From an uncultured Candidatus Saccharibacteria bacterium (lineage in GTDB: Bacteria; Patescibacteriota; Minisyncoccia; Phycocordibacterales; UBA12088), in contig CAZMLK010000002.1 of assembly GCA_964567265.1 (NCBI GenBank), positions 66,996 to 130,995 on the forward strand: a stretch of 64,000 nt of DNA. Reading direction: 5' to 3'. A program made the translations under genes and the position numbers. A model generated the notes under the pieces. It was not told where the DNA came from. It saw only the letters and a program-made list of their open reading frames with translations, and did not search any database. Positions 21,325 to 61,428 of this stretch are shown piece by piece. Position 1 is the first letter of the stretch; the number at the start of each line of letters is the position of its first letter.

Positions 21325-21485
21325 GATGTCAACGTTCTCCACTGCGGGTTTCATTTCTTTACTCGCAACATGATAACACGATAATTGCAGTTTTGTCAAT
21401 AGAGCGCCGCGTCGGCTTCCCTCTCTCAAACCGCCTGTTTTAGCCATATTTTGCGCCATTTACGATGTGCGGTACCATTAGAGGC

Positions 21486-31413: not shown

Positions 31414-32766
31414 TCACTTCAACATCATGCGGATGTGATTCACTTCTTGGAGAAGGAGCGAGTCCGTGAGGACGTCCTGCTTTATCTTTTCGCAGGAGTG
31501 AATCACTGTCGTGTGGTCACGTCCGCCGAGCTTCTGACCGATCGTCGGGTACGAGACGCTGAAATCCTCGCGGAGGATATACATGATGAGTTGTCGCGGC
31601 TTCACGACCTCCTTTTTGCGCGTCTTCTCGTAAATCGAATTCTCTTCGATGTTATAGAATTCCGCGACCTTCTTCACGACTTCCCTGATCGAAATGGTCT
31701 TTTTCGGCTTCGGCCCGTTCTTGATGAGCTGTCGCACGTCGCCGAGAGAGAGAGTTGTCCCCTTGAGATGTGTCTGGCAGATGATGGAATTGAGTGATCC
31801 CTCGAGATCGCGAATGTTTCCCTGTACGGTATCGGCGACATGCTCCAGAATCTCATCACTCAGGATGAAATTGTTGTGCCCGGCCTTGGTGCGAAGGATG
31901 ACGATGCGGGATTCACGATCCGGCTCGGAGATATCGACAATCATTCCCTGAGAAAAGCGTGATTTCAAGCGCTCCTCAAGGTTCTGGATGTAGTTCGGGT
32001 GCTTGTCCGAGGAGAATACGATCTGCTTGTTGTTCTCATAGAGCGCGTTGAAGAGATGGAAGAGCTCTTCCTGGGTGCGCTCTTTCTGCGAGAAGAACTG
32101 GATGTCGTCCATGATGAGGACGTCATACTGGCGGTATTTCTCCTTGAAGGCGTTCATGGTTCCTGCTTGGAGTGCTGCAAGGTAATCGATGGCGTATTTC
32201 TCCGAGGTCACGTAAAAGACCTTCTTCGAAGGGCTCATCTTCTTCACCTGGTTTCCGATGGCCTGGATCAGGTGCGTCTTCCCATACCCGGTCGATCCAT
32301 AGATGAAGAGCGGATTATACATGATTCCCGGGCGCTGGATGACCGCCTGCGAAGCCGCGTGGGCGAGTTCATTGAATGGCCCGACGACGAAGGTGTCGAA
32401 GGTGTAGCGTGGGTTGAGGTTGTCATTTCGGTTGATGTAGTGCTCATCGAGCGGGAGCTCGTTCCCCATGTAGGGCGTGCGGATCTCCTCAGGCCGATCT
32501 CGATGCTTCTCGCTCTTTGAAACCACGAATTCCGTGCTCCGCACCGCCGGGAAGGAGTCCCTGAGCGCCTTGAGTATCATTTTGTGGTATTTTTGCGACA
32601 GCCAGTCCTTCACGAACTCGCTTGGAACGCCGACCACCACGACCCCATCTTCCCTCCTCACGATATGCGTATCTCGAAACCACATCTTGAAGTTGGATTT
32701 CGAGATCGCGAGCTCTACTTCAACGAGCACGTTTTCCCAGAGCTGCTTGTTCGTAATGGTTTCCAT
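31414..32766 (-). CDS. dnaA: chromosomal replication initiator DnaA
   Basis: Walker A GSTGYGKTHLIQAIGN, AAA+ sensor motifs, C-terminal DNA-binding domain ...HTTVIHSCEKI. Confidence 0.9.
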   Translation of the reverse strand: METITNKQLWENVLVEVELAISKSNFKMWFRDTHIVRREDGVVVVGVPSEFVKDWLSQKYHKMILKALRDSFPAVRSTEFVVSKSEKHRDRPEEIRTPYMGNELPLDEHYINRNDNLNPRYTFDTFVVGPFNELAHAASQAVIQRPGIMYNPLFIYGSTGYGKTHLIQAIGNQVKKMSPSKKVFYVTSEKYAIDYLAALQAGTMNAFKEKYRQYDVLIMDDIQFFSQKERTQEELFHLFNALYENNKQIVFSSDKHPNYIQNLEERLKSRFSQGMIVDISEPDRESRIVILRTKAGHNNFILSDEILEHVADTVQGNIRDLEGSLNSIICQTHLKGTTLSLGDVRQLIKNGPKPKKTISIREVVKKVAEFYNIEENSIYEKTRKKEVVKPRQLIMYILREDFSVSYPTIGQKLGGRDHTTVIHSCEKIKQDVLTDSLLLQEVNHIRMMLK

Positions 32767-34179: not shown

Positions 34180-34688
34180 ACGAAAACCACTCGGCCACAG
34201 CACAGGAACCTACGGAAATGCTGGATCACGAGCGGGTACTTTCTATAATCAAAGAATGTCTCTCGCATCTGGACGTACCCTATACGTCAGTTTTTTTTGA
34301 GGAAAAAGGAGCGCATCCGCTTTTCCAGATACGGACAGATGATTCAAAGACGCTCATCGGCGCGGAGGGAGCGGTCCTCGACGCGCTCAATCATGTTGTG
34401 CGGCGGATCATAGAGCGGATCCTCGGTGAGAAAGCTGCCCACACGATCTCCATCGATGTGAACGGATATCGCTCACGGAAGATCGAGGAGCTTGCGAATA
34501 AAGCACGCATGGTTGCGGAGCGTGTCCGCCTGTTCAAGTCCGATGTGGAGCTCTCCCCTATGACTTCATATGAGCGCATGATCATCCATGCGCTGTTCGC
34601 GGAAGATCCTGACATAACGACAGAATCCGCAGGGGAAGGAAAGTTCCGCCGCGTGATCATGAAGGCGCGCTCGCGCTCGCTAACCTAG
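34176..34688 (+). CDS. Jag/KhpB-like RNA-binding protein (KH + R3H)
   Basis: start at MNENHSATAQ (ATGA overlap with yidC stop); C-terminal R3H-like segment MIIHALFAEDPDITTESAGEG. Confidence 0.7.
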   Translation: MNENHSATAQEPTEMLDHERVLSIIKECLSHLDVPYTSVFFEEKGAHPLFQIRTDDSKTLIGAEGAVLDALNHVVRRIIERILGEKAAHTISIDVNGYRSRKIEELANKARMVAERVRLFKSDVELSPMTSYERMIIHALFAEDPDITTESAGEGKFRRVIMKARSRSLT

Positions 34689-36022
34689 AGGGAGGTCGAG
34701 GTCGCGCTCTCCTCAAGCACGGGAGCGATAGGTTCTGGGTCAGATACGTATGCCTGTGGAGTGATCAGACGGTATGCATAGAGCATGCTGTCTGTTTTGT
34801 TTCTGAAAAGCAGGTAGGATTCGTCTGCCGTGAGTTCGGGATCAATAGCATCGAGCTCGGTCCGATTCGTGATGAGTGGTATGTTGAGGAGTGTCGCGTT
34901 TCCGGTATCGGCGTCAATCTTCCAGAGGTTGTCCGAGAAGGAGCGCTTCCCCTGATACCAGAGCATGATGTCCTTCACTGTTGGGATTTCGCGCGGAGCG
35001 AAGCAGAAGACGATATTTGCCTGCGCACGGCTCCATGCGCACGTTTCAGGGAGTACCTGTACTGAGATCGGTACTGTCGTATTCTGCTGCCGATTGAGCA
35101 CACTCGTTGTAATGGCATTGCTGGTCAAGTCTTTCGATGTGAAGAGTATGCGTGAAAGATCAGGACTGGTTCTTGTTTGGAGCCCTTGATACCCTCCGAG
35201 AACGCGGGTGAGGGATCCGGTCATGGTGTCGAGGAAGAAGAGAATCCCCACCGCATCCTGGTTTGACTTGGTGTTCAAAGTGACGGTATTCCCTCCCGGC
35301 CACTCGGCAATCCATTCCGTGAGCGGAGACTGGAAGATTTCCTTCGTCGCGTGCGATTTCCGGTCAACGACTGTGCCGATGGCCCCGTTGCTGTTCCGGG
35401 TCAAGGTGAATGCACGCTCTCCGTCAGGTGAAAGCGTGGCCCCGATGCTCTGGTCATCAAGGAAAAATCCGTTCAATGTCTTCAAGAGAGATTCAGGCGT
35501 CGGATTCTGTGCGAGTGTGGCGAAGAAGGAACGGACCGTGTTGTTGTCTTCCCCCATATATTGGAGCACCATGCTGTCCTTTCTCCAGGTCGCCTCGGCG
35601 ATTCGCGGGATGGTCACGTTCGCGATTTTTTGTGGAGAGACGGACGTAAGTCCTGTCTCATAGACGTGGCCCGTCTGCGCTTCCATGAAGCGGACAAATG
35701 GCACGCCGGCGCTTCCGAACGACGCAAAGCCAATGACGGGTATGGTTGATACCTGGAGCAGTGTTGCCGTTTCGGGTGCGTCGGAATTGGTAGGAGTCGT
35801 TGTTCCCGTACCCCGGTCCCCGCCTGGAGTCGTGCCGTTATTGCCACCGGTAATCGGGCGCGTATCGTCTCCATTACTGCCGAAAGGGTTGGCGCCATTT
35901 CCTGTGCCGTCTGAAGTGGTTCCACCCATCGTGAAGAGAAGTCCAATGAGAATAATAAGCGCGGCGCCCACGCCGACTCCTCCGAAGACCAGTATTTTTT
36001 TGTTTTTTGGAGTAAGTTTCAT
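34685..36022 (-). CDS. hypothetical secreted protein (N-terminal TM anchor, Gly/Thr-rich linker, beta-rich body)
   Basis: 445 aa; last gene of the long minus-strand T4SS-like operon. Confidence 0.5.
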   Translation of the reverse strand: MKLTPKNKKILVFGGVGVGAALIILIGLLFTMGGTTSDGTGNGANPFGSNGDDTRPITGGNNGTTPGGDRGTGTTTPTNSDAPETATLLQVSTIPVIGFASFGSAGVPFVRFMEAQTGHVYETGLTSVSPQKIANVTIPRIAEATWRKDSMVLQYMGEDNNTVRSFFATLAQNPTPESLLKTLNGFFLDDQSIGATLSPDGERAFTLTRNSNGAIGTVVDRKSHATKEIFQSPLTEWIAEWPGGNTVTLNTKSNQDAVGILFFLDTMTGSLTRVLGGYQGLQTRTSPDLSRILFTSKDLTSNAITTSVLNRQQNTTVPISVQVLPETCAWSRAQANIVFCFAPREIPTVKDIMLWYQGKRSFSDNLWKIDADTGNATLLNIPLITNRTELDAIDPELTADESYLLFRNKTDSMLYAYRLITPQAYVSDPEPIAPVLEESATSTSL

Positions 36023-36535
36023 TTAAGGAACGGTACAGAAGAGGTGGCCGAGCGCGCCGTCGTGGATGCTTCCCATTGCTGCAGTGCAGATTTTCTCAAG
36101 CACAGCCCGTTGCGCCGCATCTCTCGGTATGACGTCGAATATGGTGATCGGCGCGGTAGCCGCCGGCGGCCCGTACGCCGGGACAGACGGCAAGTTGAGG
36201 ACATCCAGGCTGACCAGGTCCGGGTTGATGGTATAGAGGAAGAGATAGGAGATGAGGACGATGAACAATCCTTGGAGCGCGGAGGCGATCTTCTCCTTCC
36301 CATTCCCTTTTGCCATTGGGGTGTCGCTGGCCATGTACTCAAGGCCGCCGATCGTGATCATGATGACCCCGAGAACGGCAGCAAAGCCGATCGTGACCAG
36401 GAAGAGATTACTGATGAGCTCAGGGAACGTGTCGTCGGCGGTCAGCTTTGTGAGTCCGGTGATATTCGTAAGCGAGACGAATACCGGATCTGCTGCGTAC
36501 GCATGTTTCGTTATGAGAAAGAGAAGTGTTTCCAT
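36023..36535 (-). CDS. candidate VirB2/TrbC-like pilin (signal peptide + two hydrophobic helices)
   Basis: 170 aa; putative signal peptide then two long hydrophobic segments separated by a short Lys/Gly loop, as in T4SS pilins; assignment by topology only. Confidence 0.4.
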   Translation of the reverse strand: METLLFLITKHAYAADPVFVSLTNITGLTKLTADDTFPELISNLFLVTIGFAAVLGVIMITIGGLEYMASDTPMAKGNGKEKIASALQGLFIVLISYLFLYTINPDLVSLDVLNLPSVPAYGPPAATAPITIFDVIPRDAAQRAVLEKICTAAMGSIHDGALGHLFCTVP

Positions 36536-36539
36536 GCCT

Positions 36540-37664
36540 TTATTCGGTGCCGCCCGATGTTACGGAAAGCGTCTGCCGCGCGGATTGCATAAAGAGCGTC
36601 TTATGGCGGACGCGGAGGTCAATGCGGGCAAGCGATTTTCCCCCATCGGCGCTACCCTTCAGCACGACGGCACTACTCGAATCTGCACCGAGCCCGGTAT
36701 TGGCAACACCGTTGACAAGCCAACTGTACTTGAGGACGTCACTTCCCTTCTGGTAACCAGAAAAATAATACGGCTCTGCGACGACGCTTTCTTCCGTGCC
36801 TGCGAGTACGGCTTCTTTCCCAAGTGCGTGGTCGTATCGGACGCCGAGGAGTGGATGGTCCTCGTAGAATATGACTTCCGGCTGCGCTACGGGAATTTTT
36901 GCTTTGCCGATGCCGACGAATGATCCATCTGGCGAGGTGACGCGGACGGTAATATCGAGTGCGCCGAGGACCTCGGTGTTCGTGATAGTCACGGTACGCT
37001 GGCCCTTGCCTGAGATTTTCGGCATCGTACGCGTTCCCTGTATCCAGGTGTACACCAATTGTCCCGGATCGAGTGTGTACCCACTCGAATCTACGAAGAC
37101 CGGAAAGGCGGTAAGGCGAATGAGCGAATTTGCTGACTGGAGCGCCTTTCCTTTGAAGAACGGCGGCGTGTATGTATTTGTCTCCCACACAAGATCCACA
37201 GTCGTGGGCCTAAGCGTGCGTTCAGCGATAAAGACTCGGCCCGTTTCATTCAGGATATAGGCTTTTACGGAAATTGAAGTGCCGGTGCCGCCCATGGTGA
37301 GCGGAATGGAGCGGATGTTCGGCCCATCTGCAACCGTCCGGCCTTCGACCACCCACGTGATATTCGCGCGGCCGAGATTGGTGGCAAATCCTTCAACGGT
37401 TGCCCGCAGCTCCTGTCCCGGCTGCGGCGCCTCCGGAAAGATCTTTATGGTAAAGCGGTCAAGGTCGGCGGGGTTCAGTCCTTTACCTGAAGATTGTGGC
37501 TGCGTAGAGCCGACGTAGTATCCGGATGCAGAATTGCTTTGATCCGAATACGAGTCAGGATTGCCAATATCAGCCGCATTCAGTATGAGCGGCGCCCCGC
37601 TTGCAAGCAGGATGATCGGAACAAGGAGGAGCGCGAGCGCAGTTCGGCTATGCATGTGAACCAT
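36540..37664 (-). CDS. hypothetical secreted protein
   Basis: 374 aa with clear N-terminal signal peptide; beta-rich; immediately downstream of VirB4 gene. Confidence 0.5.
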   Translation of the reverse strand: MVHMHSRTALALLLVPIILLASGAPLILNAADIGNPDSYSDQSNSASGYYVGSTQPQSSGKGLNPADLDRFTIKIFPEAPQPGQELRATVEGFATNLGRANITWVVEGRTVADGPNIRSIPLTMGGTGTSISVKAYILNETGRVFIAERTLRPTTVDLVWETNTYTPPFFKGKALQSANSLIRLTAFPVFVDSSGYTLDPGQLVYTWIQGTRTMPKISGKGQRTVTITNTEVLGALDITVRVTSPDGSFVGIGKAKIPVAQPEVIFYEDHPLLGVRYDHALGKEAVLAGTEESVVAEPYYFSGYQKGSDVLKYSWLVNGVANTGLGADSSSAVVLKGSADGGKSLARIDLRVRHKTLFMQSARQTLSVTSGGTE

Positions 37665-37705
37665 AATACCCTGAAAAATGCGCCCCTCGAAGCACGAACT
37701 GTGGA

Positions 37706-39988
37706 CTAGTATCGGCGAGGCGGCGCAAGAGGTGGCGGGGTCGCGACCACTGCTGCCGGAATTGGGGGTGCCGTTTTTTCCGCTTGAGGTGGCGGTTGCT
37801 GCATCCTGCCTGGCGCGAGTGGTGGCGGAGGTGTTGAAACCGGCGTTGTCGATTCCGTCGAGCTGGCAGCTGGGATCACTGCTTCGGTCTGGGCCGCTGG
37901 CAATGGCGCCCCCGTTTCAGGGACAGGTGTTTGAATTTGCTCGGGCTTTTCTTCGGCGATGACGTTCCCGACAGTCGGCATTGGCGTTTCAGCAACAATC
38001 GCGGTCTCTGGAATCGGCGATGTCTCCGCCGTTTCGACAGTAGCAGTCCCCGACCCTGCTTCAGGAACAGGGTTTTCAACTTCTTTTGGCTCCGAAGCCT
38101 CTACTGGAACGGGCTCGTCTGCGATTTCCGGGAGCGCGGCGGCGATTTCCGCGGCATCCTCCTCAGCAACCTTCCCCTTCTCAGCAGCGAGGTCATCCTT
38201 CGCCTTCTTAATGGAAAGCAGTTGGGACGGGTCCGACGTAATAATCTGGTCCTCAGTGTACGAGGCGATAATCTTCATGGCTACATGCTTCACGCCTGCG
38301 AAGAAGATTCCCTCTCCGACCGTGGATTCAAGAAGAAGGTACTTCTCTTCATCAGTGAGGTTGAAGGTCTTTTGGAGCGTATCAATAGAGGTCGGTGATT
38401 GTTTGAGAAGGAGCTGGATTGATGAGTTGGTGATCATCGGCGCGCCGTATGGCGACTTGAGGAAGTCGTCCACATCCTGGGTGATGGTCGCAAGTCCGAG
38501 ATAGTACTTGCGTCCGCGCTTGGCGATGCCGTAGAGGAAGGACGCAGTGTCCTCGCTCTTCATCATCCACCACGCCTCGTCGACGACGAGAATGCGACGC
38601 TTCAACTGCTTGCGGACGGTCGTCCAGATGAAGTTCGTGATGATGTACATGGCGACCGGCTTCAGCTCATCTTCCATGTCGCGCACGGAGAACACGACGA
38701 ATTTCTTGTTGATGTCGATGTTGGTCGGCTTGTTGATGAAGTTGGACCAGGAACCCTTGGTGAACTTCGTGAGGCGCTGCACGATGGAGTCGCTGCCTTC
38801 CATGCCGGCGAGGACGAGCTCGAAGTCGGAAAGGAGGGGTGGGGTCACGGCGGTAAAATCAGAATTCGGCGTGATGTCCTTGAGGGCATACGTTTCAGTG
38901 ATCGCGCGGTCAACGACCGCGTCTTCCTCAGGCGAAAGGCCGCCGAGCATGATGCGAAAGAGTCCGACGAGGGCAATGATGTTCGAGCGGAGGATGTTCG
39001 CAGGCGTCTCGTCTTCGCGCGCAGGGGGAAGATCGAACGGGTTGATGTGATAGCCGGAAGAGAGCGAAATATTGAAATACCGCCCACCGGTCGCTTCGGC
39101 CATGTACTCGTACTCGCGCTCCGGGTCGATGACGATCACGTCCGTATCGAACATGAGCGAACGAAGGACTTCCAGCTTCACCGCGTAGGACTTGCCGGCG
39201 CCGGACTTGGCGAAGACCACGGAATTGTAGTTTTCCATCGAGAAGCGGTCGAAAAGGACGAGTGAGGAGTTGTGCCGGTTGATGCCGTAAAGAATGCCTT
39301 TGTCTGCCGTGAGGTCAAATGAGACAAACGGGAAAAAGCTCGAAAGAGGGCCCGAATTGAGCTTCGAATGGACATTGAGTTCGTCGGTGGCGATCGGGAT
39401 CACGCTACGATACCCTTGTTCCTGCTGGAACAAAGCCGGCTTCAGGTACACGAGCTGCGCCTCAAGGAGCGACTTGATCTCGTTCTCGACACGGTCGAGC
39501 TCGTCGCGAGTGTCCGCATATATAGAGAGGTACAATCCGACATCGAAGAGGCGCTCCTGTGCCTGCTGGAGGCGGTCGCGGAGCTCTTCCAGGTTCTGGT
39601 AGGCCGTATCGAGCATCGGATCGCGGACCATACCCTTCTCCTCACGCACCTGGATCTGGCTTTCGACCTCGGCGACCTTCTTCTGGAATTTCTTCAGCAC
39701 CGATCCCGTATCGATCGGATGCACGAAGATAGAGACATCGAACACCTTGTCGAGGTTGATGATCGGGTAGAACCAGTTGTTCGAGAGGAAGCGTGGGTAG
39801 GAAATGACGAAGAACGAGCGCATGACTTTCTCGCCGAGATTGAGCTCCTTCGGAGTGATCTGGAGCGCGGACGGTGCGATGACATCCTTGAGCTCGAGGA
39901 CCCCAGTCTCGTAGATATTCTCAGGAAGCACCGGTTCAAGTGATGTCTTTGCCCCTGTTCCTTTTTTTGCGAAGTCGAAAAGCCCCAT
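37706..39988 (-). CDS. VirB4/TrbE/CagE-family conjugation-type ATPase with ~200-aa Pro/Glu/Thr-rich C-terminal tail
   Basis: Walker A FAKSGAGKSYAV, Walker B RILVVDEAWWMM, N-terminal VirB4 domain (ISYPRFL); low-complexity C-terminus. Confidence 0.85.
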   Translation of the reverse strand: MGLFDFAKKGTGAKTSLEPVLPENIYETGVLELKDVIAPSALQITPKELNLGEKVMRSFFVISYPRFLSNNWFYPIINLDKVFDVSIFVHPIDTGSVLKKFQKKVAEVESQIQVREEKGMVRDPMLDTAYQNLEELRDRLQQAQERLFDVGLYLSIYADTRDELDRVENEIKSLLEAQLVYLKPALFQQEQGYRSVIPIATDELNVHSKLNSGPLSSFFPFVSFDLTADKGILYGINRHNSSLVLFDRFSMENYNSVVFAKSGAGKSYAVKLEVLRSLMFDTDVIVIDPEREYEYMAEATGGRYFNISLSSGYHINPFDLPPAREDETPANILRSNIIALVGLFRIMLGGLSPEEDAVVDRAITETYALKDITPNSDFTAVTPPLLSDFELVLAGMEGSDSIVQRLTKFTKGSWSNFINKPTNIDINKKFVVFSVRDMEDELKPVAMYIITNFIWTTVRKQLKRRILVVDEAWWMMKSEDTASFLYGIAKRGRKYYLGLATITQDVDDFLKSPYGAPMITNSSIQLLLKQSPTSIDTLQKTFNLTDEEKYLLLESTVGEGIFFAGVKHVAMKIIASYTEDQIITSDPSQLLSIKKAKDDLAAEKGKVAEEDAAEIAAALPEIADEPVPVEASEPKEVENPVPEAGSGTATVETAETSPIPETAIVAETPMPTVGNVIAEEKPEQIQTPVPETGAPLPAAQTEAVIPAASSTESTTPVSTPPPPLAPGRMQQPPPQAEKTAPPIPAAVVATPPPLAPPRRY

Positions 39989-39996
39989 GATGAAAA

Positions 39997-40665
39997 TTAG
40001 CGGTTCGTCTGAAGCGGGATCGGCCGCTCGAGTTCGCCGATATTGAAGATCTTGTAGAAGAGTTCGATGACTTCCTCTGTCGAAAGTTGTGCCACGCGGA
40101 CGCCAGTGCGGGAAAGCCCGCCCTCCACGATGGACATGCGTTGCTCGAGCTGCGAGCGGTTTTCCTCGAACGAGACGTTCTTCTGCTCCGTTGATTGCTT
40201 TGCTTTCGCCCCGAACATGCTTGAAATGCCGGAAAGCGCACCCCCACCCTTCGCCTCGAGGAACGGTGGCGCGTACGGGACGATGATGAAGAAGCTTTTC
40301 GTCATGATGTTGGTGCCCTCCGTGAGGCTTTTGACGAATTCTATATATTCGCGCACCTGGATCTTCATCAGATCATTTGTCTGCTCCGCAAGGCGCCCTT
40401 CAAGCAAGGTCACGTATGGCCTGATATCGAGTTCACGCGACTGGACGAAGATCTGGACCGTGAAATCAAGCGAATTCAGGAAATTTTGGAATTGATAGAG
40501 GATCGCTTCCTGCTCAGGTTCGGATTTGAGCGCGATGTTGAGGGATGAAGCCATGAAAATGCCGCGCATGGAGCCGTCTTTGAGGACGACAATGCCGTCC
40601 CGCACCTCCTCGATCGGGACGAATTCCTGCGTTGCGCTTGCTTTTGTTCCGGTATTTGCTGCCAT
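39997..40665 (-). CDS. hypothetical cytoplasmic protein of the T4SS-like operon
   Basis: 222 aa; segment DGIVVLKDGSMRGIF...LNIALKSEPEQEAILYQFQNFLNSL resembles the N-terminal region of VirB4/CagE proteins, no ATPase motifs. Confidence 0.5.
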   Translation of the reverse strand: MAANTGTKASATQEFVPIEEVRDGIVVLKDGSMRGIFMASSLNIALKSEPEQEAILYQFQNFLNSLDFTVQIFVQSRELDIRPYVTLLEGRLAEQTNDLMKIQVREYIEFVKSLTEGTNIMTKSFFIIVPYAPPFLEAKGGGALSGISSMFGAKAKQSTEQKNVSFEENRSQLEQRMSIVEGGLSRTGVRVAQLSTEEVIELFYKIFNIGELERPIPLQTNR

Positions 40666-40671
40666 TTCTCG

Positions 40672-41097
40672 TTATTGTGAGTCCCCTGCTCCCTCGGCGA
40701 CCTTTTCCTTGATGTCGAGGCTCCAGGCCAGGTCTTTGAGCTTATTTTCGGCGATCTTTGGGACCGTCAGGAGATTTTCATCCTGGCGTGTATTCATCAC
40801 CTGTTCAGCCGCCTTCGGCTCTTTTTTCCAAAGATAGAGCCGGTTCTTGATGACGTAAAAGTAGAATGCTGCTTCGAGAATCCTGATGAACGGCTGATCG
40901 TTGAGCCGGTAGAACGCGAGCATGAGCCCGAGGATGATGAATGGCACGCCGAGGAGGATCGCAAAGACGAGCGGGAAGAATGCACGGAAGAAGAGAATGG
41001 ATGCAACACCGCCCGCCACATAGACGAACTGCTTGATCGTGAGAGGCCCGAGTATCTTATCCTCGACCTCGATGAATTGAGGAACTTTGAACGTCAT
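40672..41097 (-). CDS. VirB3/PrgI-like small membrane protein
   Basis: 141 aa; N-terminal VPQFIEVEDKILGPLTIKQFVYVAGG followed by two TM helices, the pattern of Gram-positive-type PrgI/VirB3-like proteins. Confidence 0.55.
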   Translation of the reverse strand: MTFKVPQFIEVEDKILGPLTIKQFVYVAGGVASILFFRAFFPLVFAILLGVPFIILGLMLAFYRLNDQPFIRILEAAFYFYVIKNRLYLWKKEPKAAEQVMNTRQDENLLTVPKIAENKLKDLAWSLDIKEKVAEGAGDSQ

Positions 41098-41217
41098 GCT
41101 CCGCTCTAGTATACCCCGTTAGAAATTGCGGCGCATCAAGTACAGCTACGAATAGACGCATTACGCTGCTCGAAAATCACTGCCGTCGACATTCCACCGT
41201 GTCCGAATACGGTTCCC

Positions 41218-42054
41218 TTAGGAAAATGATTCTCGATATGGATCGAGTGCCGCGTTTTTTGCCGCATCCGACAATTCGCTCGGCGATTTCGCCTCAGGTA
41301 CACCGGGTTTTGCGGGCGACACCCCATCCATCGTTGCGGATTCATGCTTTGGTTGAGGAGCGGGAGTGGACACGGGTGCCGCAGGAGACACGTTCGCTGC
41401 ATTCCCTGTCCCGAGAATGCTCCGAAGCGAAAGCGAGGCGCCGAGCTTGTCGCCGACGATATTCTTCGGCAGCTCCACAGCAGGCTCTATTTTTTTCGGA
41501 GGAATGCCCGCCAGTGATGATTCTGCAAGTACGGGCGCCGCGCTCGGGGTGCTTGCACGCACTCCGCTCGGCATAGTGACGCTCTTTGCGAAACTCGCGT
41601 CAGCTGGCTTTCGGAGCGCAGTGGTTCCGTCCGTCGCCTCACGATAGGGGTCCACATGATCGTCAGGACGAAGGTTTTCTTGAATGGTTACTGCCAGCTT
41701 CGCTGCCGACTCCTTTTCCAAATCAGCCTCCTGTTTCGAAAGGAAATTGATCAATTGCTCGTGGATTGGATGGAAGATCTGCTCGTTGACGTCCTTCGCG
41801 AGCGCATTTGCATTCTCAGGCGAGAGCTCGAGTTCCCGCTGGATATTTCCGACGAAGAGCGATGGGAGTTCCATTCCCATGAGGACGAGCACCACTTCGT
41901 TTTCAAGCGTGCCCGCTTTGTCTATATGGAGATGGTACTTCTGCGTGAGCGTAAAGAGTTTCGCGCGAAGGTCGGTTGCGGTCACGGCATCACGAAGTTC
42001 CTTCGGGAGCCGCTCGAACTGTGACTTGAATGTGTTTTTTACGTTTACGTCCAT
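41218..42054 (-). CDS. hypothetical protein (structured N-terminus, disordered Ala/Pro/Ser-rich C-terminus)
   Basis: 278-aa ORF in operon. Confidence 0.45.
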   Translation of the reverse strand: MDVNVKNTFKSQFERLPKELRDAVTATDLRAKLFTLTQKYHLHIDKAGTLENEVVLVLMGMELPSLFVGNIQRELELSPENANALAKDVNEQIFHPIHEQLINFLSKQEADLEKESAAKLAVTIQENLRPDDHVDPYREATDGTTALRKPADASFAKSVTMPSGVRASTPSAAPVLAESSLAGIPPKKIEPAVELPKNIVGDKLGASLSLRSILGTGNAANVSPAAPVSTPAPQPKHESATMDGVSPAKPGVPEAKSPSELSDAAKNAALDPYRESFS

Positions 42055-42079
42055 ACCAGTATTCGATTACTGCAAATCC

Positions 42080-44428
42080 CTAGTCGTCCTTGAGTTCACC
42101 CTTCAACTCATCCAGGATGCGGGTACGCTTGTCCTTGCCCTGTGTGCGGATGTAGTCATTAGCGACATCGTAGCTCGGAGGTGCCCACCCAAGCACGTGC
42201 TGGACATCGCGGCCGCCGCCTGCGACCTTCATAAGATCCTGATTATTCATGCGCTCATACGAAGTGTGCATTCGCTTTGCCGCATCCACCCTCCGCTGCG
42301 CATCGAGGACATTGATCGAGTCCGGGGCGAATGTCCTCTTGTTTTGTTCAAGAATGGCCTCAGCTGACCCGATTTTCGCCCTCGATTGGTCAAGGAATGC
42401 TTTCCGTTCTGTATCCGAAAGAAGGGTGCCACCTGGGGCATTCTGACGGAGCATGGCCTGCGCAAAATCATTGCCGCGCTGCTTCCCTCTCTGGAGGGCC
42501 ATGTCCTGTGCAAGCTTGTGCGCATCCATCTCGTTCACTGTCTTCACACGCTCACGCTGTTGCTTCAGTGCTGTATAAACATTCTTCGCTTCCGCGCTCT
42601 TGGGTGCAGCCTCAAGTTGGGTATCGTAATGTGCTTCCGCTGCCACTTTCTCTGTCTTTACCCTCGAGATTTCATTGGTAAGTCGCGTAGCTTCAGCACT
42701 ACCTGTTGGAGCCGCTGCGTATTGTGTTTCAAGGTCGCGGAGCTCATTCGAACGTGCAGTGACGACACTCTTCGCTGTTCGAACACCTGCGTTGTCGCGC
42801 TCCATGAGGTCCTTGTATCGCGTATCAAGGGTGTGTTCCTTGTTCTGCTCCTCAGCTACATGCCGATCCTGATTCATTGTGTCATGGTCGCTGGCCTGCA
42901 CGCGAGATTTCGAAACATGGTCAAGATTCTCCTTGTAGTACTTGGCATTGTCCTTACGGGTCTGGTTGTAGCCACCCTTCTGCTTGTTGATGTCACCGAG
43001 CCCAAGTTTCTTCGCGCCCGGCGCATCACGGAAGTCCATGCTCGATTTTGCCGTCCTCTCAGATCCGCGCCAGACCTTTGTTGCAACCCAGCCGCGTGCA
43101 CCGCCCTTCGACATCGCATCCTTAACACTGTCGGAGTTCGAGACAGCGAGCGCGGCGCGTCCAATTGATTGTCGTGCGGCAAATCCGATACCGCCCGCGA
43201 CGGCGAGCCCAGCGACCGTATTCCCTATGGTAAGCGCGGACTTCCCGACATCGCCGGAAAGCTTTTTTGTGATGCGAAGTGCGAAGATGAACATCAGTCC
43301 GGAGAGGACGTAAATGAAAATCACCGGTGAAGCAAGATCCACCACTGCTTTGTTCGCGAAATTGGCAGACGCGTCTGTGTTGAAATTCGTCTTTAAGACA
43401 GTCGTGATTATTAGAACCAAAAAGAGGAACACTGGTGCCACTAATGCCTGGTCGACGAGGTGCTGCTTCCACTGCGAGTAATACTTTGAGGTGCCTGGAA
43501 GGATGGAGCAGAGAAATGCCGCCGGGGAGAATACGATGAGGAAAACAAACACCACTAGGCGGACGGCGATAAGTATGAGTGCTTGGAAGAATACCCAGAA
43601 TGCAATCATGTTGACAGCAAAACGCGCCAGATACACAAGCGCCCCCTTCCACGGGGTAAGGTTCTCGGCAGGGTCAATTCCTTGGTAATTGTATTCGACG
43701 CGCATGGCCCCGGTCATGGACATTGAGATGTATTGGTCCGGAGGAGCAATCGTGCTCCGTATCTGGAACGCGACCACGTTCGAGAGATCGATGATGAAGC
43801 TGGTTATGAAGAAGCTGAAGTTGATGAGGAGCGCGACCACGATGACTTTCGCAAGCAGCGACCGCGTGTTGAACCCCGCCTGCCCGACCATGGTCATGAT
43901 GCCGATATAGACCATGATGAATATGAAGAAGAGGTTTGAGAAGTCGCGGACGATGGTCCAAGAGACCACAACACCCGCGTACATCTGCGATATCGGGTTT
44001 TGGAACACGGTGTACCTGAGGGCAAAGTCCATCGCCATTCCCATCCATCCGACAAGCACGGCGGAGAGCCAGGCCAGTAACCAGGCGAGTGACTTGAACA
44101 TGCAAGGAACCTGGAGGGCGTTAAAAGGTTCCAGAAGCGTGCTGGTACAGTTAATGGCGACCTGCGTGGGTTCCTGAATGCCATTAATGGCTCCCGAGAT
44201 GTCGTTACCCGGCTCTCCGATTCGAGGGAATACGTTCTGTGCGTGTGCAGGAAATACCGGCGCAACAAGGAGGAATCCAGCGAAAAGGATGATGATCGCT
44301 GAAGAGGCGAATCGGAGCCTGCTTCCCCGTATACGATCCCTAGATTCCTGCCCCTCTGCAGCACTTCCGAAGCCGCCCGTGGAAAGGCGGCTTCGGATCA
44401 CGGAAAATAGTTGTTTCAGAAACTCCAT
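42080..44428 (-). CDS. VirB6/TrbL-like polytopic membrane protein with long coiled-coil C-terminal domain
   Basis: 782 aa; >=7 hydrophobic helices in first 430 aa, then hydrophilic K/E/Q/R-rich region. Confidence 0.55.
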   Translation of the reverse strand: MEFLKQLFSVIRSRLSTGGFGSAAEGQESRDRIRGSRLRFASSAIIILFAGFLLVAPVFPAHAQNVFPRIGEPGNDISGAINGIQEPTQVAINCTSTLLEPFNALQVPCMFKSLAWLLAWLSAVLVGWMGMAMDFALRYTVFQNPISQMYAGVVVSWTIVRDFSNLFFIFIMVYIGIMTMVGQAGFNTRSLLAKVIVVALLINFSFFITSFIIDLSNVVAFQIRSTIAPPDQYISMSMTGAMRVEYNYQGIDPAENLTPWKGALVYLARFAVNMIAFWVFFQALILIAVRLVVFVFLIVFSPAAFLCSILPGTSKYYSQWKQHLVDQALVAPVFLFLVLIITTVLKTNFNTDASANFANKAVVDLASPVIFIYVLSGLMFIFALRITKKLSGDVGKSALTIGNTVAGLAVAGGIGFAARQSIGRAALAVSNSDSVKDAMSKGGARGWVATKVWRGSERTAKSSMDFRDAPGAKKLGLGDINKQKGGYNQTRKDNAKYYKENLDHVSKSRVQASDHDTMNQDRHVAEEQNKEHTLDTRYKDLMERDNAGVRTAKSVVTARSNELRDLETQYAAAPTGSAEATRLTNEISRVKTEKVAAEAHYDTQLEAAPKSAEAKNVYTALKQQRERVKTVNEMDAHKLAQDMALQRGKQRGNDFAQAMLRQNAPGGTLLSDTERKAFLDQSRAKIGSAEAILEQNKRTFAPDSINVLDAQRRVDAAKRMHTSYERMNNQDLMKVAGGGRDVQHVLGWAPPSYDVANDYIRTQGKDKRTRILDELKGELKDD

Positions 44429-44442
44429 GGTGTGCGGAATCG

Positions 44443-45774
44443 TTATGGTCCTGCGGGTGGTCCATCATCAGGTGGCGGCGGTACGTCAGTTGGGGATCCA
44501 GTCGGACACACATAGGTGATCGGTGCGGGTGGGTTGTAGAACTCGTCTTGGAGCGTGCGGATCTCAGCGACGGTCGTCGCAGCCTGGACACGAGTAAGGA
44601 GGTCTCGAAGGTATGCGATCGCAGCACGAAGCTGGGCGATGATGGTCGGGTCCGTCTGGGTGTCAAGGCAGGCTGCGAGCGTATTGATCATGTTCGCGAT
44701 GACCGTGATGAGTTGCTGCTTGAGAGCGGTCAGGTTCTTACCCTGGTCATCATGGATGAGATCGAAGTATGACTTGCCGCCATTCCGGTCGCTCGGATCG
44801 CTGAGGCCGAGGAGGCCGTTGTCGCCGTAGAGGATCTCATTCGCGAGATATGCGAGAAGCGCGCTGATGATCTCATCGATTTCGTCGGCGATTTCAAGCT
44901 GTGCGAGACCGGTTCCCGTCACTTTGTCGAGCGTGTCCTGGACGAGATGCCCTGGCGTCTTCGTCTCATACTTGAGACAGATGGTCTCAGCCGGGTTGGC
45001 CGGGTTCGGCACTTCCTGGACGCAGACCGTAAGTCCGATTTGTCCAGAACCAAAATTCAATTGCTGTTGCCAGCTACCACTCGCTCCCGAGATGCGGATT
45101 CCCATGAAGCCGGTACCGATGTCGAATGCGCCCATCGGATCGTTCATCGGATTTGTCGTAACCGAGAACCACTGGTCCCAATTCTGCATGCCGGCGAGGC
45201 CGTCCTGGAAATCCTGGATATTCGCCATGACGTCGGTGAGCGTACATTCGAATTCCTGACGCCTATTTTGGAAATACTTAAGCGTGAGTGCTATCTGGAT
45301 ATCGATACGGAACGGCTCGCAAAGGAGACCGAGCCCGAGCTCTTGAATGAACGCGCCCGCTGATTTGTCTGCCACGTCAGTAAAGAAGTCCTCGGGGTTC
45401 GTGATGAAGGAGGGTCCGCCCTCGAAGCCAGAGTTGATCCAGTTGATGATGCTCTCCGTAAGCTCAGCGATCAATGCTTCCTTGATGATGATGACGAGCG
45501 CGTCGAGAACGCATTCCTTGATGGTCGTTCCTGAGGTTGCGGTACTCGTGACAGCTGTGTTTCCTTGGATCGGAAGGTTGGCAATCGGAACTGAGAGCAC
45601 GCTAACGGCTGTACCAATGAGGTTGCCGATCCCGATGAACGACGCGATGGCGCCGATGCACTGCAAGATGCCTGCAGCAGCTTCCGTCTTTTGCGGTACG
45701 AGGAATAGCGGCGCAGCAACAAACTGGAAAACCAGTATCGAGGTAATGAGGAATTTTGAAAGGAGACCGAACAT
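44443..45774 (-). CDS. hypothetical secreted protein
   Basis: start set at MFGLLSKFLITSILVFQFVAAPLFLV (signal peptide); Pro-rich C-terminus. Confidence 0.45.
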   Translation of the reverse strand: MFGLLSKFLITSILVFQFVAAPLFLVPQKTEAAAGILQCIGAIASFIGIGNLIGTAVSVLSVPIANLPIQGNTAVTSTATSGTTIKECVLDALVIIIKEALIAELTESIINWINSGFEGGPSFITNPEDFFTDVADKSAGAFIQELGLGLLCEPFRIDIQIALTLKYFQNRRQEFECTLTDVMANIQDFQDGLAGMQNWDQWFSVTTNPMNDPMGAFDIGTGFMGIRISGASGSWQQQLNFGSGQIGLTVCVQEVPNPANPAETICLKYETKTPGHLVQDTLDKVTGTGLAQLEIADEIDEIISALLAYLANEILYGDNGLLGLSDPSDRNGGKSYFDLIHDDQGKNLTALKQQLITVIANMINTLAACLDTQTDPTIIAQLRAAIAYLRDLLTRVQAATTVAEIRTLQDEFYNPPAPITYVCPTGSPTDVPPPPDDGPPAGP

Positions 45775-45775
45775 A

Positions 45776-46708
45776 CTATATAAGCCTGTTTGTCTTGAAA
45801 TATGCGCCAAAGTCGTTCGTTGCCGCGATGAATTGCTTTTCAACTACTTTGTAGTTCGCAACGACGACCGTCGCAAGGAGCGGATCTGCACGGAGAGTGC
45901 GGAGGCCATCGAGGGTGGTCGCGAATGAATAGCTGACATTGAGGAAGTTGAGATGGACCTGGACAGCGCTCGCGGGGACTTTTACGGCGGCGAGATCGGT
46001 GCTCAGTTTCTTGTACATCGTGACCATGCGTTCTACCTTCCGCATGTCCTCCGGCTTTCCGCTATCGATCGCGCGTCCGATGGTGACGAGCTCAGGTTCC
46101 GAATTATCATTCGATTCATACGCATCTTTGAGTATGTTTTGAATCTTGCCATAGTACGTTCGCCGATCTGCGTCGGTATCATCTTTTACGATCGAGAGAT
46201 CGGTCGGTCCGTACTTCACGGTGAACACCTCTTTCTTGGCACTATCAACCAACGTTGCCACCAATTGTGCCTGGTGCTCCTTGTCCATAGTTCCCGACTG
46301 CTTGTACGCCATATAGGTGCCGAAAAGATCCTTCGCGGCCTGGTCGGTCAAGGTCCCTTTCGTTTCAGATTGGACCCCGGCATTTTTTGCGAACGCCTCG
46401 ACGCTCGCATCCGAGACCTGGTCCGATGGACCGGGGATGAGCGGATTCCGCTTCGCAGCCACTTCGTCACCGTCTGAGGTGCCATCAGTGTCCGTGTCTG
46501 CCTTCTTCGGGTCGGTACCGATGAGCGTCTCTTCCCAATCGAGGAGGCCGTCATGATCGGTGTCCACACGCGCAACTTCCCGTGCATCTGCAAGTGATGG
46601 ATCAGGGGCATCAACAGGAACTTCTTTTTTTGATGACAGCACCAAGTACGCTGCAATGCCAAGAATGGCGACGGCGAGACAGATTGCGCCAATCAATTTC
46701 ATTGGCAT
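45776..46708 (-). CDS. hypothetical secreted protein with Asp-rich calcium-binding-like repeats
   Basis: signal anchor MPMKLIGAICLAVAILGIAAYLVL; DTDHDGLLDWEETLIGTDPKKADTDTDGTSDGDE resembles thrombospondin-type-3 / EF-hand-like Ca-binding loops. Confidence 0.45.
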   Translation of the reverse strand: MPMKLIGAICLAVAILGIAAYLVLSSKKEVPVDAPDPSLADAREVARVDTDHDGLLDWEETLIGTDPKKADTDTDGTSDGDEVAAKRNPLIPGPSDQVSDASVEAFAKNAGVQSETKGTLTDQAAKDLFGTYMAYKQSGTMDKEHQAQLVATLVDSAKKEVFTVKYGPTDLSIVKDDTDADRRTYYGKIQNILKDAYESNDNSEPELVTIGRAIDSGKPEDMRKVERMVTMYKKLSTDLAAVKVPASAVQVHLNFLNVSYSFATTLDGLRTLRADPLLATVVVANYKVVEKQFIAATNDFGAYFKTNRLI

Positions 46709-46918
46709 TTTTGTCGGCGGTGTGCGACCGAGCATTTCGTCATTCAGTATAGCAACGATTCCCTATCGGACATGTCCTATAGGGAAAGATATATGTGGAT
46801 ACTGGATGAAGGCCTGAAATAAAAAAAGCCGCTTCATGAAGCGGAGAAAATGATGAATCCGGTTTTTCGAAATAGAAAAAGGGGTCGGCGCGAGCCGACC
46901 CCTCCTCATACTTCGCTG

Positions 46919-47452
46919 CTACTGAGTCAAGCAGTTTGCAGCCATCCATTGTGTTGACATCATCCCCTCTCGGCAGGCGGTTGCGATTTGGCCGGCCGAT
47001 GGGCCTGCGGTGCTCATTGCACCGGCATTTTGGAAGGTTCCCGAAGGTTTGCCCTCACGCCGATTGCGTTCCTGCTGGCAAAGGTAGGCATTTTGGGGAC
47101 CTTTCTGCTGGGCGATGTCCATCGCAATAAGTCCAGCAAAGGGGGCAGCCAGAATTGCTGCGGGTGCTGCAGCCGCAGCGCCGAGCACCATTCCAGCTGT
47201 CGCAATGCCGGCACCCGCACCAACGGTTTTCTTGTCGCTCTCATCCTGCTTAGCAATCTCGGCTTGATACTTCGCCTTTTCTGCCTCGGTGCCGCAGATA
47301 TCATAGAAGGTGGCGTCGTCCCACGCCTCACCATGGGTGACAGGGGCGAGCCCCGTTGCGGTACGGATTTGATTCGTCATTGCGCCGCAGTTTGCAAGCA
47401 ACAAGGTGAAGGCGATCACGGAGATCGCCCGCGCAATCGATAGGAATCGCAT
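46919..47452 (-). CDS. hypothetical lipoprotein with Gly/Ala-rich hydrophobic segment
   Basis: start at MRFLSIARAISVIAFTLLLANCG (lipobox). Confidence 0.45.
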   Translation of the reverse strand: MRFLSIARAISVIAFTLLLANCGAMTNQIRTATGLAPVTHGEAWDDATFYDICGTEAEKAKYQAEIAKQDESDKKTVGAGAGIATAGMVLGAAAAAPAAILAAPFAGLIAMDIAQQKGPQNAYLCQQERNRREGKPSGTFQNAGAMSTAGPSAGQIATACREGMMSTQWMAANCLTQ

Positions 47453-47631
47453 GGTAGCGATCTCCAGTGCTTGTTTCGGGACCATTCCCGAAACTGGTAA
47501 CCTAATTCAAGCATGCCACGGAATTTTGAGAGCCGCAAGTGGTGAATTGGATCGGGCAAATCTCTTAATAAAATATGGCTCCATAGAGCCATTTTTATAT
47601 GAAAAAAAAAGCCTCATGCTATACTTTTTGA

Positions 47632-48675
47632 ATGTTTCGACGCACCTTTGGCATCTTCTTTCTCCTGATCAGTATGCTGGCCTTCCCGGCAGGACTCGGG
47701 GCAGCGCCTATCCCAAATATCTCTAGGAACCTCGGCCAGGGTATGGAAGGTGATGATGTCCTTGGGCTTCAGCAATTCTTGAACCGTGACCCCCGGACAC
47801 GCATTGCAGAGATTGGAATTGGTGCTCCGGGTAAGGAAACGCGCTATTTTGGGGCAAAAACAAAGGAGGCGGTCCGGAAATTCCAAGAGTTGTACGCCTC
47901 GGACGTGCTCTATCCTGCAGGGCTGTATGCGGGCACCGGCTTCGTGGGAACGGGAACGAGAGCGAAAATCCAGGCTATCTCGAAGCTGGTGATCTTCGGT
48001 GAAGAAAATCCCGCGGTCCCTGCTTCTCTCGGGGAACAGCCTGCAGCACCTTCTTTGGGAGGGGCGATGCTCTCGTCTGGAGGCTATGAGAAAGGGTTGG
48101 CAACATGGAAAGTGCCTATTCTTATCTTTCCTTCAAAATACGTGATAACGCCCGGAGAAATGCTCACGATCTCGGGAGGAGGGTATCTTAAGGACAACGT
48201 CGTCAAATTTGGCGAAAAATATAGCCTTCCAGGCCCTTCGACGAATGGAGTTACTATAAAAGTGCGGATTCCTGACAACGCACCGCTTGGGAAATACAAA
48301 TTGTCAGTAAAGAATGATCACGGAGAAACTGAATTTGATGTTCCCCTAGTCATCAAGGATGCGAGTACGCCCTCGCCGACAATTACGCGCATCACTCCGT
48401 CTTCAGGAAAATACGGGACCGAGATTATACTGGAAGGAACCGGATTTATGCCGACGGGGAACGACATTCGCGCTGCAGGATGGGCGATTCTCAAGGATCT
48501 CCCCTCCCCCGATGGGAAAACGCTCCGGTTGACTGTGCTTCCGTTCCCGGACGCGCTCGGCCCTGACAACCATGCACCTACCACGACGGTACCGTTCAAT
48601 TGGAACATGCGATTCTTTGTAGTGAATGCAAACGGTATCACCGAAACCCCGGGCACGTTCCTCTTTTCTCGATGA
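47632..48675 (+). CDS. secreted protein with peptidoglycan-binding (PG_binding_1-like) domain and Ig-like repeats
   Basis: signal peptide; GDDVLGLQQFLNRDP...KTKEAVRKFQELY matches PG-binding helical domain. Confidence 0.55.
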   Translation: MFRRTFGIFFLLISMLAFPAGLGAAPIPNISRNLGQGMEGDDVLGLQQFLNRDPRTRIAEIGIGAPGKETRYFGAKTKEAVRKFQELYASDVLYPAGLYAGTGFVGTGTRAKIQAISKLVIFGEENPAVPASLGEQPAAPSLGGAMLSSGGYEKGLATWKVPILIFPSKYVITPGEMLTISGGGYLKDNVVKFGEKYSLPGPSTNGVTIKVRIPDNAPLGKYKLSVKNDHGETEFDVPLVIKDASTPSPTITRITPSSGKYGTEIILEGTGFMPTGNDIRAAGWAILKDLPSPDGKTLRLTVLPFPDALGPDNHAPTTTVPFNWNMRFFVVNANGITETPGTFLFSR

Positions 48676-59961: not shown

Positions 59962-60061
59962 GGGGGCACGATACCACATAAGGGGTTTTTAGGCAACCCG
60001 TCTCATGAAGATCGTAGTTTCATCACGAAACCGAGATTCTTGGTATACTATTTTGCGACAC

Positions 60062-60991: not shown

Positions 60992-61066
60992 GGGTCATTG
61001 GGATTTGTTTTCGGTCGAGCCCGTTGGGATATACTGATTGATATAAAAGATGTAACCTTATAAAAT

Positions 61067-61399: not shown

Positions 61400-61428
61400 A
61401 GGAGGCAAATTCTGTTATCATAGGCCGC

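Follow-up and report, generated by a model that had tools for sequence, protein, structure and literature searches.

Few machines have been shown to be essential for epibiotic life in the very large, mostly uncultivated patescibacterial radiation; one of them is a type IV secretion system (T4SS). On the chromosomes of most of these ultra-small bacteria, it is encoded beside the origin of replication. The Patescibacteria clade of these systems was described as featuring TrsD, PrgI, VirB6 and VirB2 proteins, proximity to dnaA, and no relaxases (Quiñonero-Coronel et al. 2025, PMC12102498); in that study, relaxases were present in just 103 of 3,035 genomes. In Southlakia epibionticum, the T4SS genes and a pilin array were found to be essential, and no coupling protein or relaxase was recognizable (Wang et al. 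2023, PMC10633639); ComEC was not essential in this organism (PMC10633639, PMC11665869, PMC12857230). A 2026 preprint reported tubular connections between parasite and host, possibly T4SS pili, together with the uptake of host RNA, and linked polynucleotide phosphorylase (PNPase) with VirB4, both as ancestral traits of a parasitism that feeds on RNA in this phylum. Here, a locus of this kind was analyzed in a 64,000-nucleotide stretch (hereafter, the window) of contig CAZMLK010000002.1 (positions 66,996 to 130,995 of the forward strand; assembly GCA_964567265.1) from an uncultured Candidatus Saccharibacteria bacterium. An original prediction, made from the letters of this stretch alone, had described a 12-kb, single-strand operon for a minimal T4SS-like apparatus with many secreted partners.

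The locus was read as a chromosomal, non-conjugative Patescibacteria T4SS that has the Paceibacteria layout and is encoded in a single origin-side operon; a probability of roughly 85% was assigned to this reading. All ten of the predicted open reading frames (ORFs) were recovered as co-directional genes on the minus strand between 34685 and 46735 (ca. 12 kb), and they are numbered here in the order of transcription, from gene 1 at the high-coordinate end to gene 10. Profile searches did not reduce them to unrelated membrane proteins beside an isolated ATPase. Rather, the profiles, the synteny and the published description (PMC12102498) all agreed with a reduced, VirB4/VirB6-centered system of the Candidate Phyla Radiation type, as had been predicted.

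The motor is encoded by genes 7 and 6. Gene 7 (37706..39988, minus strand, 760 amino acids [aa]) was confirmed as the predicted VirB4 ATPase: NCBIfam conju_CD1110 matched with an E-value of 9.5e-109 (364.7 bits, cutoff 325) and Pfam P-loop_TraG with 8.3e-26, and the Walker A (G263-x-G-K-S267) and Walker B (D470-E471) motifs are intact and invariant across 73 aligned sequences. The protein also has an unusual Pro/Ala/Glu-rich C-terminal tail of ca. 150–170 aa (residues about 590–760; 37706–38215) in which PPPLAP occurs twice; the median length of the VirB4 orthologs is 610 aa, and a single ortholog among 78 exceeds the window protein in length. Gene 6 (39997..40665, minus strand, 222 aa), which the original prediction had listed without a label, was identified as TrsD by NCBIfam profiles (TrsD, 3.3e-7; VirB4_plasma, 3.9e-10, profile positions 99–233; CD1110, positions 2–118), and its relatives carry the annotation PF26593 TraC-like. 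In hhalign, the TrsD family profile aligned to aa 22–199 of a Clostridium VirB4 (1.5e-5, probability 80%), and the gene 7 ORF corresponded to aa 207–759 of the same full-length protein. Because the two ORFs align to successive parts of one Clostridium VirB4, TrsD is, judged by alignment, the detached N-terminal domain of VirB4, and genes 6 and 7 together make a split VirB4.

Two further genes encode membrane proteins. Gene 5 (40672..41097, minus strand, 141 aa) encodes a small membrane protein of the PrgI/VirB3 family, as predicted; Pfam PrgI matched at 7.8e-10 (39.6 bits, cutoff 27), and the gene occurs in 76 of the 80 related loci introduced below. Gene 3 (42080..44428, minus strand, 782 aa) had been described as a VirB6/TrbL-like polytopic protein with a 350-aa coiled-coil tail. 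Its polytopic nature was evident in about eight hydrophobic segments (aa 40–383), which are followed by a charged, Ala/Lys/Asp/Arg-rich C-terminal tail of ca. 350 aa. The coiled-coil character of this tail is suggested by its composition and by weak matches to coiled-coil proteins; when the gene 3 profile was compared with PDB sequences, the tail matched coiled-coil proteins and there were no other matches. TrbL was the sole recurrent family among gene 3 orthologs, 7 of 51 of which matched (E up to 0.01, best 4.6e-5), and in three homologs (P0122, P0126 and P0132) positions 26–213 of the 215 in the profile were covered at 23–25.7 bits, compared to a cutoff of 25.9. Gene 3 also lies upstream of PrgI and VirB4, like VirB6 in a Clostridium plasmid cluster. 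It was therefore designated a putative divergent, “extended” VirB6/TrbL on the grounds of sub-threshold TrbL matches, hydropathy and position, an assignment that is supported but not proven.

The gene order was compared among relatives located by a VirB4 search in one genome per species. At least 589 relatives were found, and the best 80 were compared as related loci (L001–L080); all of these are from metagenome-assembled genomes of Paceibacteria/Parcubacteria (labelled Kaiser-, Campbell-, Wolfe-, Taylor-, Nomura- and Adlerbacteria), with VirB4 identities of 72–80%. Wherever the contig was long enough, the order was uvrD-ksgA-(TIG protein)-gene 1-gene 2-VirB6-gene 4-PrgI-TrsD-VirB4-gene 8-pilin-gene 10|jag-yidC|dnaA-dnaN. 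The five accessory proteins (those of genes 1, 2, 4, 8 and 10) were always co-located with VirB4, TrsD, PrgI, VirB6 and the pilin, and the ten-gene arrangement is far beyond chance. In the window, the operon is flanked by dnaN, dnaA, yidC and jag at one end and by ksgA, uvrD and a LysM-M23 peptidase gene at the other; the GC content of the operon equals that of its flanks. Because the order is conserved across the 80 loci and the GC content is unchanged, the locus is a core chromosomal block beside the replication origin and not a mobile element.

Median identities were calculated over the same 53 genome pairs throughout, with some bias introduced by having picked the loci by VirB4 similarity. 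They were 76% for VirB4, 60% for TrsD, 60% for DnaA, 53% for UvrD, 49% for KsgA, 45% for DnaN, 45% for PrgI, 39% for the N-terminal half of the pilin, and 27–31% for the four extracellular proteins and VirB6. VirB4 (37706–39988) was better conserved than DnaA (31414–32766) in 53 of 53 pairs. A strongly constrained motor with fast-evolving exposed parts is consistent with an essential machine that faces a changing host.

The operon itself reads as one well-bounded unit, since hairpins and a −10-like element stand upstream of it and gene 10 converges on jag at the far end. The start region (46746..46902, minus strand) was read from the sequence. It contains two terminator-like hairpins behind the unrelated upstream gene (about 46902–46876 and 46844–46829, the second of which was also returned by a scan) and a TGnTATACT extended −10-like element at 46754–46746, ca. 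10 nt ahead of the gene 1 ATG; these are consensus-level matches and are proposed as candidates only. Intergenic spacing is 0–41 bp, with the sole exception of 120 bp ahead of prgI, where a second TATACT with GGAG was read and may be a candidate internal promoter. In a sigma-70 scan, promoter-like sites were no commoner than in shuffled sequence. Rfam returned nothing within the operon and only five tRNAs in the whole window.

The original prediction had listed VirD4, a relaxase, VirB11 and VirB9/VirB10 as not visible, and profile scans of the window and operon agreed. No coupling protein was found in Pfam scans of the large ORFs of the 64-kb window, nor within ±10 kb in the 80 loci, and the same window scans returned no relaxase family. 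A Clostridium VirD4 query matched only the P-loop of VirB4 (E = 0.037), and no VirB7, VirB9, VirB10 or VirB11 family was returned by Pfam or NCBIfam scans. The window encodes a single ATPase of the T2SSE family; it lies 13 kb away from the operon, carries an MshEN domain and is on that account PilB-like. Type IV pilus genes stand apart from the T4SS operon, the PilB-type ATPase with MshEN at 21465–23153 (plus strand) and PilM at 6397–7557 (minus strand). Because neither a coupling protein nor a relaxase was found at the locus, it is not regarded as a DNA-conjugation apparatus.

Gene 9 (36023..36535, minus strand, 170 aa), the predicted VirB2-like two-helix pilin candidate, begins with a leader, continues with two hydrophobic helices and ends in an extension of 65 aa that contains two Cys residues; it matched T4SS_pilin (PF18895) at 8.7e-7 (29.4 bits, cutoff 26.6). 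PF18895 was also detected in 41 of 47 orthologs and TrbC/VirB2 (PF04956) in 4 of the 47. Family hidden Markov models located no further pilin, VirB4 or PrgI paralog in the window. Proteins at the pilin position of the operon in L001–L080 are between 79 and 555 aa long, and in 9 of the 47 orthologs the pilin module is fused to a peptidoglycan-remodeling domain (NlpC/P60 in four, YkuD in two, Amidase_5 in two and 3D in one), and such fusions may supply the missing VirB1-like activity.

Four of the accessory proteins are extracellular. Gene 1 (45776..46735, minus strand, 319 aa) had been predicted to encode a secreted protein with Ca-binding repeats. The repeats were confirmed: Pfam TSP3_bac matched at 9.3e-8, the calcium-binding TSP3/EF-hand-like repeats lie at aa about 50–100, and the family profile retrieved calcium-loop proteins only from PDB sequences (2.4e-7). 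Free secretion was not supported; the single hydrophobic segment (aa 14–32) is an N-terminal membrane anchor. The C-terminal part is a domain of ca. 200 aa without an assigned fold, and the gene occupies the same position in 32 related loci.

Gene 2 (44443..45774, minus strand, 443 aa) had been given a TTG start at 45843. A 443-aa protein on record (P0001) is 100% identical to it, and the start is most likely Met24 (45774). With this start, gene 2 begins right after the gene 1 stop with zero overlap. The protein is secreted, as predicted, in that it has a signal peptide, which is followed by a conserved, mainly helical, Cys-containing domain of ca. 320 aa. Since the C-termini of orthologs vary and bear domains of the discoidin-type lectin or Ig-like kind (F5_F8_type_C in 6 of 39, Bact_surface_Ig-like in 2 of 39), gene 2 is a candidate for a ligand-binding role at the surface, as a surface or tip adhesin. 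An AlphaFold2 (AF2) model from a 42-sequence alignment was of moderate quality (mean predicted local distance difference test [pLDDT] score 67, predicted template-modeling score 0.34). It had no Foldseek match in the PDB at E<1, and the profile search of PDB sequences was also blank. A VirB5-like or hydrolase identity was considered for gene 2 and found to be unsupported by these blank searches and the moderate model.

Gene 8 (36540..37664, minus strand, 374 aa) carries the predicted signal peptide and, in addition, three tandem Ig-like beta-sandwich repeats of ca. 105 aa each. The repeats emerged from self-alignment of the family profile (2.6e-10, probability 97%, shift of ca. 105 aa), and orthologs contain BiPBP_C (17 of 72) or Ig_3 (6 of 72); there were also weak PDB matches to Hoc and Ig domains. 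The gene occurs in 75 of 80 loci, and its product is, from these features, predicted to be secreted or wall-associated. Gene 10 (34685..36022, minus strand, 445 aa) had been called a beta-rich secreted protein. It is indeed beta-rich: a Gly/Thr-rich linker leads to a TolB-like (PD40) beta-propeller, the family profile matched 12 TolB entries among PDB sequences (best 7.2e-5), and orthologs contain PD40 (5 of 62) or DPPIV_N (1 of 62). A single hydrophobic segment forms an N-terminal membrane anchor, and free secretion was not supported here either. Residues C328 and C340 are invariant, and the gene occurs in 67 of 80 loci. The gene 10 orthologs of L031, L041, L051 and L062 are each interrupted by one in-frame stop codon, as is the VirB6 ortholog of L078; these may represent pseudogenes, assembly errors or recoding.

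The fifth accessory protein, that of gene 4 (41218..42054, minus strand, 278 aa), is cytoplasmic, with zero hydrophobic segments. It was called hypothetical in the original prediction; it still has no match in Pfam, NCBIfam or a PDB-sequence profile search, and it belongs to a large family whose members almost all end in a motif of the DPYRE type. An N-terminal six-helix domain of ca. 125 aa was modeled confidently in AF2 (pLDDT above 90 for aa 30–120) and had no Foldseek match in the PDB at E<2. This domain is followed by a disordered, Pro-rich linker of ca. 150 aa, and the last residues are D-P-Y-R-E-S-F-S. The D, P, Y and E are invariant in a 56-sequence alignment and lie 2–4 residues from the end, barring a few longer tails. 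A weaker motif, KL.G.F.LP.EE, lies 10–25 aa ahead of the DPYRE tail, and a further, internal copy of DPYRE stands near aa 134 of the gene 4 product. A DPYRE at the end of an ORF was found exactly once in each of 54 of the 80 related loci, namely in the ORF ending just before prgI. A full HMMER search with the N-domain returned 3,818 representative clusters, and in many members the domain is present twice or three times. Among the best 144 members, DPY[RLKHQ][EMV] forms the end of 118, and near variants that of most others. Six distant members were inspected. Five of these (L083, L084 and L086–L088) lie between a large membrane protein and a PrgI - TraC-like - VirB4 series, and the contig of the sixth ends directly behind the gene. 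So far as the contigs extend, the gene thus stands between VirB6 and PrgI at all loci that were checked. A small ORF ahead of VirB6 in the Clostridium cluster was tried as a counterpart and gave no hhalign match. A literature search on “DPYRE” returned irrelevant papers only.

Tethered terminal peptides usually dock on a partner, as do the tails of FtsZ and SSB; in T4SS biology, a terminal peptide can also serve as a translocation signal. It is offered as a speculative and rather doubtful proposal that gene 4 encodes an overlooked core T4SS subunit, either an adaptor that replaces the coupling protein or a substrate with a new C-terminal translocation signal. In the adaptor variant, the docking site of the DPYRE tail would be VirB4/TrsD or the tail of VirB6, with cargo bound by the helical domains. 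In the substrate variant, the tail would be a new type of C-terminal T4SS signal on the system's own substrate. Either role, if true, would give the first handle on the cargo of an essential machine.

The machine is most likely a contact-dependent host conduit needed for the growth of biosynthetically poor epibionts. A scheme for its operation was modeled on the established roles of VirB4, VirB3, VirB6 and VirB2 in other T4SSs. VirB6 and PrgI would form a membrane platform on which TrsD and VirB4 dock. ATP hydrolysis would then push pilin from the membrane into a pilus or conduit across the wall, which is thin and monoderm. The part that crosses the wall and binds the host would be built by the propeller, the triple-Ig protein, the Ca-binding protein and the lectin-bearing protein, and the DPYRE-tailed protein would act on the cytoplasmic side.

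Several points weigh against the reading of the locus as a non-conjugative Patescibacteria T4SS. None of the ten operon proteins matched a VirB8 or hydrolase profile, and no VirB8- or VirB1-like gene was recognized among them; the two operon proteins that were modeled (those of genes 2 and 4) are not VirB8-like. For gene 3 itself, the TrbL match reached only 0.046, below threshold; its family profile had no hhalign match to the Clostridium CD1112 VirB6; and its transmembrane region had no tblastn match in 72,556 plasmids. Other parts of the genome might encode a coupling protein or relaxase, and many coupling-protein homologs lie far from virB4 in Patescibacteria (PMC12102498). The VirB4 was placed in its clade, provisionally, by best matches rather than by a tree. 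Finally, pilus formation, substrate and transport direction are inferred, and the sequence does not decide between import and export.

Among the alternatives, that which survives best, as a tentative possibility, is an importer of nucleic acids or other macromolecules, similar to ComB or Ced, that takes host DNA or RNA as a nucleotide source. Such a machine would be in keeping with the failure to find a type IV coupling protein (T4CP) or relaxase, but exporters without a T4CP exist too, namely Ptl and the Brucella VirB system (PMC12102498; PMC12857230). NCBIfam CedB matched the window VirB4 in part (6.2e-9); however, the match is limited to the P-loop region (aa 439–509) and scored 35 bits versus a cutoff of 700, and no CedA, CedA1, CedA2 or ComB6–10 partner was matched among the operon proteins. 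The T4SS has been proposed as a route of nucleotide acquisition on the grounds that ComEC is dispensable and the T4SS essential (PMC11665869). The 2026 preprint adds host RNA uptake, tubular connections, and monophyly of VirB4 and PNPase across the phylum, but itself leaves the mechanism of uptake unresolved. A PNPase gene is present in the window at 56653–58827 (minus strand), 10 kb from the operon.

Export of effectors was judged somewhat unlikely. The exported proteins, possibly the DPYRE-tailed protein or wall hydrolases, would pass into or onto the host to open or manipulate it. T4SS substrates are typically proteins that would otherwise be cytoplasmic and that bear a translocation signal at the C-terminus, and the operon encodes one cytoplasmic protein whose C-terminal motif is invariant and follows a disordered linker. 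The fixed core position of this protein and its frequent repeats of two or three domains would suit a structural subunit or adaptor equally well, however, and the operon has no effector-like genes and no coupling protein to recognize substrates. The pilin-hydrolase fusions in 9 of 47 orthologous loci are favorable to export, and Wang et al. favored the export of proteins, or some alternative role, rather than transport of DNA (PMC10633639).

It is improbable that the locus builds an adhesion-only pilus, that is, a VirB4-built, VirB2-type pilus for host attachment through which nothing passes. The pilin, the adhesin-like proteins (lectin/Ig domains in gene 2 orthologs, the triple-Ig protein, the Ca-binding protein) and the lack of a substrate-recognition ATPase could be so explained, but the conserved cytoplasmic DPYRE component and the large cytoplasmic tail of VirB6 would be hard to account for. 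Furthermore, type IV pili already serve adhesion and motility (PilB and PilM are encoded in the window), and type IV pili and the T4SS are separately essential in Southlakia (PMC11665869, PMC12857230, PMC10633639). An integrated conjugative element or degraded plasmid for present or past inter-bacterial DNA transfer was rejected as close to refuted: the CD1110 family of this VirB4 is used by Firmicute conjugative elements and a tyrosine recombinase lies where GC declines after 60 kb, but the recombinase is 13 kb off, past six housekeeping genes, and against such an element stand the housekeeping setting beside dnaA, with an order conserved among the 80 species-level genomes compared, the flank-like GC, the absence of relaxase and T4CP from the window scans, a VirB4 more constrained than DnaA, and the rarity of relaxases noted above (PMC12102498).

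The rest of the window holds housekeeping genes (PNPase, PolA, PBP1a, RuvAB, TyrRS, PilB, PilM) and several ORFs that deserve mention. Directly upstream of the operon, beyond the two terminator-like hairpins, a 188-aa ORF (46919–47485, minus strand) has a lipoprotein-like N-terminus (LLANC); a counterpart was found in none of the 80 related loci. Divergent from the operon, a protein with PG_binding_1 and TIG domains is encoded at 47632–48675 (plus strand), and it is also present in 14 related loci and in L086. The LysM-LysM-M23 peptidase gene is located at 52231–53229 (plus strand), 5.5 kb from the operon. Both of these proteins are candidate wall-remodeling helpers of the T4SS; M23 and LysM domains have been noted in VirB1-like proteins (PMC12102498). 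A 500-aa ORF at 55185–56687 (minus strand) matched no Pfam family; its N-terminal half is long, disordered and rich in Pro and Ala, and a single transmembrane helix (aa 235–257, approximately) separates it from a globular C-terminal part. The tyrosine recombinase (Phage_integrase family; 60005–60991, plus strand) lies where GC falls from ca. 0.55 to ca. 0.48 (60000–64000) and could be XerC/D or an island edge.

In comparison with known systems, the Agrobacterium VirB/VirD4 apparatus (mating-pair formation [MPF] class MPF-T) shares with this locus equivalents of VirB2, VirB3, VirB4 and VirB6 and, presumably, VirB4-driven pilus biogenesis. VirB1, VirB5, VirB7, VirB8, VirB9, VirB10, VirB11 and VirD4 are unrecognized here, and the envelope is monoderm. 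Helicobacter pylori ComB and the Sulfolobales Ced system (DNA import) and Bordetella Ptl and Brucella VirB (protein export) have in common with the locus that they function without a T4CP or relaxase, and because the first two import and the last two export, a VirB4-centered machine can move cargo either way without a T4CP or relaxase. Past VirB4, there is no homology to these four systems, and even the CedB match is confined to the P-loop region. A diderm VirB7–10 core is found in ComB, Ptl and Brucella VirB, and Ced uses CedA membrane proteins and archaeal pili.

The MPF-FATA systems of Firmicutes (CTn2/CD1110-type, such as Clostridium botulinum pCDC3875; pGO1 TrsD/TrsE) are closer. They share a VirB4 above the CD1110 cutoff, the VirB6 - PrgI - x - VirB4 order, a TrsD-like protein as in pGO1, and a monoderm design without VirB7/9/10. 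The nearest plasmid VirB4s are Firmicute and Actinobacterial, with 28–36% identity, and a Clostridium botulinum plasmid has the same VirB6 - PrgI - x - VirB4 order, plus VirD4 and an SLT hydrolase. Here, by contrast, VirB4 is split, the locus is core chromosomal and not mobile, and VirD4, a relaxase, an SLT-type hydrolase and a VirB8-like gene were not found at the locus. Gram-positive systems are without a VirB2-like pilin, whereas this locus has one.

The closest correspondence is with the Patescibacteria clade. Shared features are the MPF-FATA-derived VirB4 with adjacent TrsD, PrgI/VirB3 and a putative VirB6-like protein, the PF18895 pilin, the cluster without relaxase or coupling protein, and the dnaA/dnaN/ksgA site as in Paceibacteria and Microgenomatia. 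As far as sequence can tell, the locus has the features of this clade, with a reservation for the sub-threshold VirB6. It differs in its single pilin gene from the arrays of 2–11 pilin genes common in Saccharimonadia and Microgenomatia, and in Southlakia epibionticum (SEML1_0006–0019) a peptidase/lysozyme gene lies directly downstream of virB4, where this locus has none. The original prediction had called such systems largely uncharacterized, which holds for their function but not for the system, which is well catalogued and, in one species in culture, was shown to be essential. Both the system and its composition have already been published, as has its site near the origin, and the finding is accordingly correct but known: the locus represents the Paceibacteria layout cleanly and completely, without being a new kind of system. 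The main text of PMC12102498 and PMC10633639 does not name the five accessory proteins, the DPYRE-tailed one among them. What may be new is the ten-gene set conserved in Paceibacteria, the folds for three accessory proteins, the pilin-hydrolase fusions and the DPYRE-tailed family. The conserved set thus spans ten genes, beyond the five recognizable VirB-like parts, and its DPYRE component is directly testable as an adaptor or substrate.

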